A program made the position numbers and the translations under genes. DNA of 64,000 nucleotides, taken from assembly GCA_030295235.1 (NCBI GenBank), contig AP026133.1, forward strand, positions 1,116,001 through 1,180,000, in the 5' to 3' direction. The notes under the pieces are model-generated. The model was given only the letters and a program-made list of their open reading frames with translations. It did not search any database and was not told where the DNA came from. The DNA is from Fistulifera solaris (Eukaryota). Below are positions 30,991-32,433 of this stretch, piece by piece; the first letter of the stretch is position 1; every line of letters starts with the position of its first letter.

Positions 30991-31438
30991 CAAATCAAAC
31001 GACGACTTAGCATTCAGCCGCCTCGTGCTGCGGAGAAAAAGCCAAAATATTCGACATGAGATTTCAGTTATTGGCTTTCTACCATGAGCCCATTTTACTA
31101 GACTATAATATAATAACCAGTTGTCTACGATTTGTGAAGATCGCAGTTTCAAAAGTACGCTCTACTGTGTTCCAAGACTCGTGACTAACTCTCCGTAGGT
31201 GGCCTCCGACTCAAGATACCGAAAGGGTGTCCATTCTGTTCCCTTGCGATTGTGATTCTTTTCCTGAAACAGGCAAATGCTGAACATTGATTTGTCAACA
31301 CTACGCAGTAACTTGGTAGCGGGGAACAAGGACAGCTGTGACTTGTGACAAACATCTCTAGCTACTCTATCACGGAGTACAACACAAACGAAGGTAAGTT
31401 CAAGTTTGGATAACGTATTTATTTGCTTATTCGTTATT

Positions 31439-31950
31439 TTACTCCGTAGCGGTCAGAATATCCGAGTCCCCACCGTCCATAATGGCCAATACAGAGCAGT
31501 TAAAGAATTTACCGCAAGCAGTTCCCAACGCTGTGTTATCTCCTGCATAATGGTGCACTTGTGTCTTGGCCAACATGGCCAAATATTCAACTTCAGATTT
31601 TCGCAAGTGTGGGCAGTTAGAGGCGATCAAGATCATTTTAGCCTTTTGCTTTCGTAGCGCCTTGACGGCTTCCTTATATCCGAGGATCGCCTTTCCAGAC
31701 TTCATAACAAGTTTCAGACGACTGTTCATGGAGTCGGCTGACTTTTTCTATCGATACAAAAAGAAACAAGAATATGCATAGATGAGAATAATTCCGTTAC
31801 AGAAAGAGACGATCGTTTCGATCCGCCTCGTGGTGGTTGTTTGTAGAATGGCTTGCGAATAACCAAAACATGACAACCATCTCGGGCGGGCGAATGCAAA
31901 AGAAACAGCCCCCTCCGGTGTCATGCACCTACCGCTTTTTTAGAAACCAT
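31439..31950 (-). CDS. RPL30: 60S ribosomal protein L30 (eL30)
   Basis: Exon 1 (31950-31933) encodes MVSKKA; intron 31932-31748; exon 2 encodes [19 protein letters not shown]...EYLAMLAK...LGTACGK...GDSDIL. Confidence 0.96.
31868..31926 (-). promoter_or_regulatory. Putative L30e-binding kink-turn RNA element in the RPL30 intron
   Basis: The transcript reads GCAUGACACC-GGA-GGGGGC-(16-nt loop)-GCCCGCC-CGA-GAU-GGUUGUCAUGU. This gives two stems flanking a 3-nt bulge with tandem G.A/A.G pairs, and the same ACCGGAG...GAGAUGGU core as the yeast RPL30 element. Confidence 0.75.
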
Positions 31951-32433
31951 GGTGAAATAATGTGTGTGTAATTAATTGATTACAGTACTTGAAGAAAGAT
32001 GAATAGCAAAGGATGCAATTGAGACACCTTTGTTGCATCCAAAAAGACGCGGTCGCGGTCGCGGTCGCGGTCGGTTGGCCGATTTCGATTTTAGTAGCAA
32101 GGTAAGGAGTAAGGATTTGCAATTAAGTCAGAGGTACCAGGTATTGCTCTACCCTTCTTGGACTATGTAAATCCCTTTCACACAATAAGTGATAGTTCCG
32201 CATCATGCGTACACATTACACTCTAATAGTGAATCATGTACCGGTACCTGTCAGACATCGTTCGAATCGTCCCACACGTAACTGGCGTCAATCGTCGAAA
32301 ATTCGATCACGAGACAAAACGCAGCGCGAAGTAAAAAAAAGTGGCATGACAATCAACAAGAAATACAAACGATTCAAATTCATTTCTCTTTCTTCAAACA
32401 ATCTTTGATTCGAAACGATAAGTTGAGTCAAAG

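Follow-up and report, generated by a model that had tools for sequence, protein, structure and literature searches.

A conserved kink-turn at the start of the RPL30 intron of the diatom Fistulifera solaris, a candidate operator for eL30 autoregulation

That ribosomal proteins exert feedback at sites which mimic their targets on the rRNA is textbook knowledge in bacteria, and the autoregulatory sites of these proteins usually imitate the site on the rRNA. In eukaryotes such feedback rests, to our knowledge, on a handful of budding-yeast cases, of which RPL30 is the founding one, and we know of splicing feedback by its product, eL30, from budding yeast alone so far. The kink-turn (k-turn) of Saccharomyces cerevisiae RPL30 is reportedly treated in work by Vilardell and Warner, by Mao, White and Williamson in 1999, by Chao and Williamson in 2004 and by Macias et al. 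in 2008. Here we analyse a stretch of 64,000 nucleotides from the diatom Fistulifera solaris (assembly GCA_030295235.1, contig AP026133.1, positions 1,116,001 to 1,180,000), called the window, whose minus strand carries the gene for ribosomal protein L30 (eL30) with a predicted k-turn at the start of its intron. We consider it likely that this element is an autoregulatory operator for eL30 within its own pre-mRNA, which would repress splicing.

The yeast RPL30 k-turn (gene formerly L32; structure PDB 1T0K) is covered in passages of PMC3706390, PMC8047918, PMC1874613 and PMC5061560. According to these, the site lies within the 5′ untranslated region (UTR), at the transcript's 5′ end, and works on the mature mRNA too (PMC3706390), and eL30 bound near the 5′ splice site inhibits the binding of U2 (PMC8047918). 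The rRNA site of eL30 is described as a k-turn in helix 58 of the large-subunit rRNA (PMC3706390). An archaeal counterpart, the L7Ae autoregulatory k-turn in the 5′ UTR of l7ae, is presented in passages of Daume et al. (2017, PMC5539422) and Huang et al. (2019, PMC6298567).

In the window, RNA from intron position +7 can fold into a standard k-turn hairpin (31868-31926, minus strand). Its parts are listed below, where counts of 20 refer to the full elements compared further on.

31917..31926, minus strand: basal (non-canonical, NC) helix, 5′ strand GCAUGACACC, starting at intron +7
31914..31916, minus strand: k-turn core, non-bulged strand GGA, that is G3n, G2n and A1n, invariant in 20/20
31908..31913, minus strand: apical canonical (C) helix, 5′ strand GGGGGC, with the -1 and -2 pairs G-C in 20/20
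31892..31907, minus strand: terminal loop of 16 nt, variable in sequence and length among relatives
31885..31891, minus strand: C helix, 3′ strand GCCCGCC, with a bulged G at 31887
31882..31884, minus strand: three-nucleotide k-turn bulge L1-L3, CGA, with L3 at 31882
31879..31881, minus strand: core, bulged strand GAU, that is G1b, A2b and U3b, giving sheared G.A and A.G pairs, then U.G
31868..31878, minus strand: NC helix, 3′ strand GGUUGUCAUGU, with one bulged U at 31875 or 31876

The hairpin agrees in sequence with the definition of the standard simple k-turn given in passages of Huang and Lilley (2016, PMC5061560): a three-nucleotide bulge, tandem sheared G.A and A.G pairs, a C helix with a Watson-Crick -1b.-1n pair and an NC helix, the last with 10-11 pairs in the window. 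By its sequence the element is a standard k-turn; the kinked three-dimensional fold is predicted, and L3 (31882) would be the base that swings into the pocket of the protein. The original prediction, made from the letters of the window, had placed it at 31868-31932, wholly intronic and next to the splice donor. The text and coordinates given there are exact on the minus strand, and the element does lie wholly within the intron, beside the donor, from +7. A search of 31300-32200 with Rfam (4227 families, E <= 10) returned three chance-level matches, none on the strand and at the place of the element.

Relatives were gathered with an eL30 protein query only, blind to RNA, which gave 44 loci from metagenome contigs. 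One further locus, L045, came from a genome collection searched with the same query, and a scan of viral contigs with the eL30 protein found only an irrelevant 12-residue match (L046). The relatives reached have eL30 proteins 67-90% identical, and the comparison covers such loci. Duplicates were merged (L014 with L012; L019 and L020 with L015; L022 with L021; L038-L040 with L037), as were near-duplicates (L023, close to L017; L034, close to L033). Loci with the 5′ part of the intron missing, or with a partial or distant match, stand outside the count (L002, L011, L018, L024, L027, L042, L043, L044 and L046), and there is no intron at the corresponding place in L029 (a spliced, cDNA-like contig), L035, L037 and L041. 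Exon 1 and the intron start are seen in 25 distinct loci, the window included.

A k-turn stands at the intron start in 21 of these 25 loci. The full element is present in 20 of them (the window, L001, L003, L004, L005, L006, L007, L008, L010, L012, L013, L015, L016, L021, L025, L026, L028, L030, L036 and L045), and in the remaining one, L031, the k-turn at this position is shorter. In all 21, YGGAG starts 13-17 nt after the donor G, mostly 15. Loop lengths vary between 7 and ~95 nt, and intron lengths between ~200 and 590 nt. The invariant positions in the 20 full elements are G3n, G2n, A1n, the two bulge-closing G-C pairs, L2 = G, L3 = A, G1b, A2b and G4b. U3b is U in 19/20, so that the 3b.3n pair is U.G in 19/20 and A.G in L003; L1 is C in 18, U in one and A in one, and the bulge always has 3 nt. 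Donor positions 1, 2, 3, 5 and 6 (G, U, A, G, U) are likewise invariant in 20/20. The column of the C-helix bulge (31887) holds G in 18/20 and A in 2/20, and that of the NC-helix bulge is occupied in 18/20. The alignment of orthologous introns proposed with the original prediction has therefore gone in its favour, the GGA/GAGAU core being conserved.

A covariance model (R1), built from 15 elements and the k-turn structure, gave a single match in the 64-kb window (E 1.9e-17; next best E = 2). Over 160 kb, on both strands, it found 23 sites at E <= 3e-8, all of them RPL30 intron starts, the next having E = 2. Five elements on which the model had not been trained were recovered (E 4.2e-13 for L008, 4.5e-10 for L010, 2e-8 for L016, 1.2e-9 for L026 and 1.4e-16 for L045).

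In the model-fitted alignment of the 20 elements, 87.8% of the cells are paired, changes on both sides occur at 8 of 17 pairs (26 cells), and 0/500 column shuffles attain the covariation score; when the 3′ partner is slid by 1-3 columns, pairing falls to 21-55%. Among the 20 loci the apical C helix is 92.5% paired. The basal NC helix has changes on both sides at 7 of its 7 outer pairs, compensatory changes of the kind for which the original prediction had suggested looking. At least 8 different basal-helix sequences keep one architecture, namely 2-3 core-side pairs, a bulge or mismatch of 1-2 nt and 5-7 more pairs. Because the model-fitted alignment leans towards the model, two further controls were run. 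A plain MAFFT alignment of 15 sequences, which leaves out L031, had 82% of cells paired and 6 pairs double-changed, with 13/500 shuffles attaining the score. The second control was alignment-free: the 12 nt preceding YGGAG were paired with the 15 nt that begin at G4b (in GAGAWG, the final G), and a locus's own flanks gave a mean of -12.0 kcal/mol versus -7.8 for flanks swapped between loci, a difference matched by 0/10000 permutations.

These results bear on the view that the pattern arose by chance, or is a DNA-level element devoid of RNA structure, for instance a promoter or enhancer motif in the intron. Transcription signals are frequent in the first introns of highly expressed genes, which would suit this view, as does the fold energy of the single sequence, not above that of shuffles. 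Against it stand the compensatory changes preserving the basal pairing across these different helix sequences (at least 8), the strand specificity of the element and its locked position relative to the donor, and the lack of anything comparable found by R1 elsewhere in the 160 kb. We regard this explanation as very improbable.

The gene itself was examined together with RNA evidence from four small public runs of a single study (X1-X4), whose assignment as RNA is a guess, over 31300-32200. Contigs of these runs carry no level information and were consequently used in a non-quantitative way only. Gaps in the coverage by X2-X4 carried no evidential weight. The features of the gene are as follows.

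31933..31950, minus strand: eL30 exon 1, coding part, ATG and 5 codons (MVSKKA), with the X3 contig junction 31933/31747
31927..31932, minus strand: 5′ splice site GUAGGU, from the sequence and the X3 junction
31748..31932, minus strand: sole eL30 intron, 185 nt, GT..AG, from the X3 junction
31439..31747, minus strand: eL30 exon 2, 102 codons and TAA

The start codon ATG is at 31950, exon 1 having 6 codons. Among solved structures, the product of exon 2 matched best the eL30 chains of mammalian ribosomes (E 1.7e-40), and it matched the yeast L30 of entry 1T0K, the L30-mRNA complex, with E 8.4e-33. An X3 contig connects 31747 to 31933 and omits 185 nt with plus-strand ends CT..AC (GT..AG on the gene strand), the intron length given in the original prediction. 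The same run has a poly-T loose end at 31405, which fits the poly(A) tail of a minus-strand mRNA. Because of this junction and this end, the intron is taken as real and removed at the predicted sites. An X2 contig spans 31554-31891, with exon 2 continuous with 144 nt of intron across the 3′ splice site, and molecules containing the intron do occur in this run. If the intron is retained and read in frame, a TGA stop is met at codon 10 (31921-31923).

As to the protein, all L7Ae-family members recognise the same G.A/A.G core, and the yeast L30e pre-mRNA k-turn has U.G at 3b,3n, according to passages of PMC5061560. Passages of PMC1874613 describe a strong preference of Snu13/15.5K and L7Ae for U at the base that protrudes at loop position 3, while yeast L30 accepts A or C there, its natural site having a protruding A. 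Loop position 3 is A in 20/20 elements, as in the yeast L30 type, and in none is it the U of the Snu13/15.5K type. An A at L3 and U.G at 3b.3n point to eL30 among the L7Ae-family proteins, and eL30 is the probable binder of this k-turn. The eL30 of the window retains L22, K29, K80 and F82, counterparts of rat L29, K36, K87 and Y89 (yeast F85). In passages of PMC3706390 these rat residues are those probed for RNA binding, with Y89 (yeast F85) as the most prominent contact and an aromatic residue required at that place.

The shared core also makes room for Snu13/15.5K or another L7Ae-family protein as the binder, in a small ribonucleoprotein embedded in the intron (like a small nucleolar RNA, snoRNA, or a 'kink-loop') that might damp excision of the host intron. 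There is a parallel in mammals, where thousands of 15.5K-bound intronic K-loop RNAs suppress host-intron excision, as stated in the 2026 preprint 10.64898/2026.08.03.742641, and GAUGA and CUGA words occur in the basal-helix region of L003, L005 and L025. We hold this improbable: the L3 position is A throughout the elements, against the strong U preference of Snu13/15.5K and L7Ae; no CUGA word occurs in the window or in most loci; and the would-be guide loop differs freely between loci, both in its letters and in its length (7 to ~95 nt). Moreover, at E <= 10 Rfam gave no snoRNA or other family on this strand of the intron, and the element was found by R1 in RPL30 genes only (160 kb). Its topology, with the bulge on the 3′ strand and the C helix at the apex, is also opposite to that of a terminal box C/D motif.

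A box C/D snoRNA has a C box (RUGAUGA) and a D box (CUGA) at its ends and a conserved guide. This candidate was rejected, as the element has neither conserved C/D boxes nor a guide, its loop is unconserved and L3 is not U. A selenocysteine insertion sequence (SECIS) element is defined by an AUGA..GA quartet; a SECIS-like element was dropped, since the bulged strand and the core words misfit that quartet.

In addition to the intronic element, a shorter k-turn hairpin lies 7-75 nt upstream of the RPL30 ATG in ten loci. These hairpins, and the minimal k-turn found within an intron, are located as follows.

L004, 1034-1082: 5′ UTR k-turn
L006/L007, 1174-1217: 5′ UTR k-turn
L009, 939-1003: 5′ UTR k-turn
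L010, 116-185: 5′ UTR k-turn
L016, 40-85: 5′ UTR k-turn
L028, 400-444: 5′ UTR k-turn
L029, 1235-1280: 5′ UTR k-turn
L036, 1037-1081: 5′ UTR k-turn
L045, 1127-1173: 5′ UTR k-turn
L031, 301-347: minimal k-turn, intronic

The 5′ UTR k-turn reads YGGAGC, a loop, GC (a C stem of 2 bp), a 3-nt bulge ending in A, and GA-AGG (UAGG in L028). A second covariance model (R2), made of seven 5′ UTR hairpins, recovers de novo, at E 1e-3 to 6e-3, those of L004, L006/L007 and L028, and over 163 kb otherwise only the intronic element of L003 and a chance-level match on the minus strand of L004 (E = 1.5). R2 finds no 5′ UTR k-turn in the window. For six loci (L045 excluded), own flanks of the 5′ UTR k-turn gave -7.3 versus -3.4 kcal/mol for swapped ones, a value reached by 4/720 permutations; the helices of several of these hairpins are weak. 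In L041, whose eL30 gene is 67% identical and has no intron, the core halves are inverted (bulged strand first) around a hexaloop at 843-866, 26 nt before the ATG, in a K-loop-like arrangement. The window has the intron site only and L009 the 5′ UTR site only, and both k-turns are present in L004, L006/7, L010, L016, L028, L036 and L045. The 5′ UTR k-turn may be a translational operator and is put forward as a candidate.

Given a conserved L30-type k-turn at the start of the intron, eL30 probably limits its own production by blocking splicing. In the proposed mechanism, as soon as ~65 nt of intron RNA have been made, the RNA would form a hairpin with the k-turn between the basal helix and the GC-rich apical helix. 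Whenever more eL30 is produced than ribosome assembly takes up, free protein would bind the intronic k-turn; since the basal helix begins at intron +7, the complex would directly abut the donor hexamer, and thus the 5′ splice site. The bound protein would then stall a step of spliceosome assembly, by analogy with the block of U2 recruitment by yeast L30. Unspliced RNA could not make eL30, because the retained intron brings the in-frame UGA at codon 10, and would probably be degraded. When eL30 is scarce, the site would be free, the intron removed and the mRNA made. Repression of splicing by eL30 is suggested by the yeast analogy, and the strictly kept distance between k-turn and donor fits a steric mechanism.

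That fixed distance is equally compatible with a purely structural role, in which the hairpin would be constitutive intron architecture without protein feedback, for example presenting the donor or shortening the effective intron. Intronic stems that aid splicing are known in yeast ribosomal-protein genes, as passages of PMC12311795 relate. A plain helix would suffice for such a role, yet 11 core positions, the unpaired L2 and L3 among them, are invariant in 20/20 while the helices drift, and an invariant core amid drifting helices marks, at the level of sequence, a site recognised by protein. In 10 loci this core is also seen in the gene's 5′ UTR, with no splice site nearby, and the host gene encodes a k-turn-binding protein. 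We give the architectural explanation only a small chance.

Several points weigh against the operator proposed here. The fold of the window sequence is no stabler than that of shuffles (RNAfold -23 kcal/mol, z = -0.27). Among the 20 loci the apical C helix has no compensatory changes, and because its changes are solely G-C to G-U it is backed by conservation and not by covariation. The strongest covariation figures come from the model-fitted alignment, and the sequences compared are relatives of one another. Applied to the MAFFT alignment, RNAalifold missed the k-turn helices and proposed a short CGG/CCG pairing, a result that was set aside because nearest-neighbour energy models leave G.A pairs unscored. 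No recognisable k-turn stands at the intron start in L009, L017, L032 and L033 (4/25; 76-86% protein identity), and in the last three none was seen by eye or with models R1 and R2; the device is dispensable or replaceable, therefore. The donor hexamer lies outside the helix in the window, unlike the yeast site as the papers describe it. The nature of runs X1-X4 is guessed ('RNA?'), and levels are unobtainable from contigs. Finally, the case linking eL30 to the k-turn rests on comparison, with binding and regulation predicted. We keep autoregulation of eL30 through the intronic k-turn as the likely reading.

A wider proposal is that eL30 feedback through k-turns is an old modular device of this algal lineage, perhaps of eukaryotes at large, in which the two jobs of the yeast site are split between two operators. 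The intronic k-turn beside the donor would shut off splicing, the minimal k-turn before the AUG would shut off translation of mRNA already made, and lineages would retain one operator, the other or both. This proposal is tentative, and we rate it as somewhat short of an even chance. If it is true, yeast would be one survivor of a widespread eL30 regulon layout, and not a curiosity.

Some further observations concern the surveyed loci. L045 is a 335-kb contig binned in a metagenome-assembled genome labelled 'uncultured Actinomycetota bacterium', and it encodes a eukaryotic eL30 (90% identical) in a gene with both k-turns and two spliceosomal introns; the contig is evidently eukaryotic and mis-binned. 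Its second intron (1427-1503) lies within the codons for ...MNTR|LKLV... and is missing from the window gene, so the number of introns varies within the group. In L035 (~95-127) and L037-L040 (~1455-1500), which have no intron in the coding region, (G)TGGAGAT comes immediately after CAG, 15-20 nt before the ATG. The CAG looks like the 3′ splice site of a 5′ UTR intron, and in L037-40 a tRNA gene lies just upstream. A split k-turn around the AUG of L035 and L037-40 was attempted, and pairing was not achieved.

Other observations concern the window. The Logan contigs of X1 and X2 break within the k-turn hairpin, at 31862/31872 and 31891/31901 (window 31862-31901), and the short piece between the breaks has a higher depth; the breaks may reflect allelic variants of the loop or difficulty of assembly in the GC-rich stem. 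A perfect hairpin of 8-9 bp (GGATGCAA..TTGCATCC) is present ~60-90 nt upstream of the eL30 ATG (window 32011-32040, minus strand), and the spliced X3 contig terminates within it, at 32017. Just upstream of this hairpin there is a (CGCGAC)x4 repeat (32046-32075, minus strand), and the region may be a promoter or 5′ UTR signal.

In the full-text literature searched, which takes in neither subscription journals nor supplements, no description of an L30 k-turn or of L30 autoregulation was found for a diatom, Phaeodactylum, a stramenopile or algae; the original prediction likewise knew of none in diatoms. Searches on RPL30 with k-turn, splice site and phylogeny returned the yeast work and one diplomonad paper, which notes stem-loops in Rpl30 introns with no k-turn or feedback claim. 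A position-locked, covarying k-turn of the L30 type in the RPL30 intron of a distant lineage of photosynthetic eukaryotes would imply that the mechanism has great age or else is easy to invent anew. In either case, how widely ribosomal proteins control themselves at the level of splicing can be put to the test in a second group that is genetically tractable. For algal synthetic biology, the element would offer a natural protein-responsive splicing switch of ~60 nt together with a candidate translational switch. Covariance models R1 and R2 can be run over any set of eukaryotic genomes.

Among known systems, the l7ae k-turn of archaea resembles the diatom element in that a ribosomal protein of the L7Ae family represses its own message through a k-turn hairpin, as the same passages (PMC5539422, PMC6298567) describe it, and the short 'type 2' hairpins in the 5′ UTR of relatives recall its layout. 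It differs in the translational control, in a prokaryote-type leader, in the protein, in a U-type loop and in the lack of splicing. The mammalian 15.5K kink-loop RNAs, as the preprint 10.64898/2026.08.03.742641 describes them, are also intronic k-type motifs suppressing excision of the host intron, as the diatom element would. They differ in having terminal C/D motifs, a K-loop, 15.5K as the binder and thousands of host genes, while the window element is one gene-specific site with A at L3. The helix 58 k-turn is the natural target of the same protein, eL30, in the passages on the rRNA site (PMC3706390).

The closest system is yeast RPL30, and the yeast-type reading of the original prediction is supported by several shared features: the gene is the same, the site adjoins the 5′ splice site of its first intron, and the k-turn is of the standard kind, with a 3-nt bulge, a protruding A at loop 3 and U.G at 3b.3n. 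The RNA-contact residues of the protein are kept, including the aromatic equivalent of yeast F85, and by analogy an excess of free protein would be expected to repress splicing. The core words also appear to resemble those of the yeast site as quoted in the original prediction. The layout is different. The yeast site spans 5′ UTR/exon 1 and stays in the mature mRNA, with repression of translation as well, whereas the window element, wholly intronic from +7, is removed with the intron, so that the mature mRNA loses the site. Further differences from yeast are the shorter k-turn that ten relatives bear by itself in the 5′ UTR, a C helix formed as an apical hairpin whose bulged G is conserved, and an NC helix with a conserved bulge of 1-2 nt after the second or third pair. 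By sequence comparison the diatom element is well supported as a candidate for the principle known from yeast, in the same gene, with a different layout and in a far-removed lineage.

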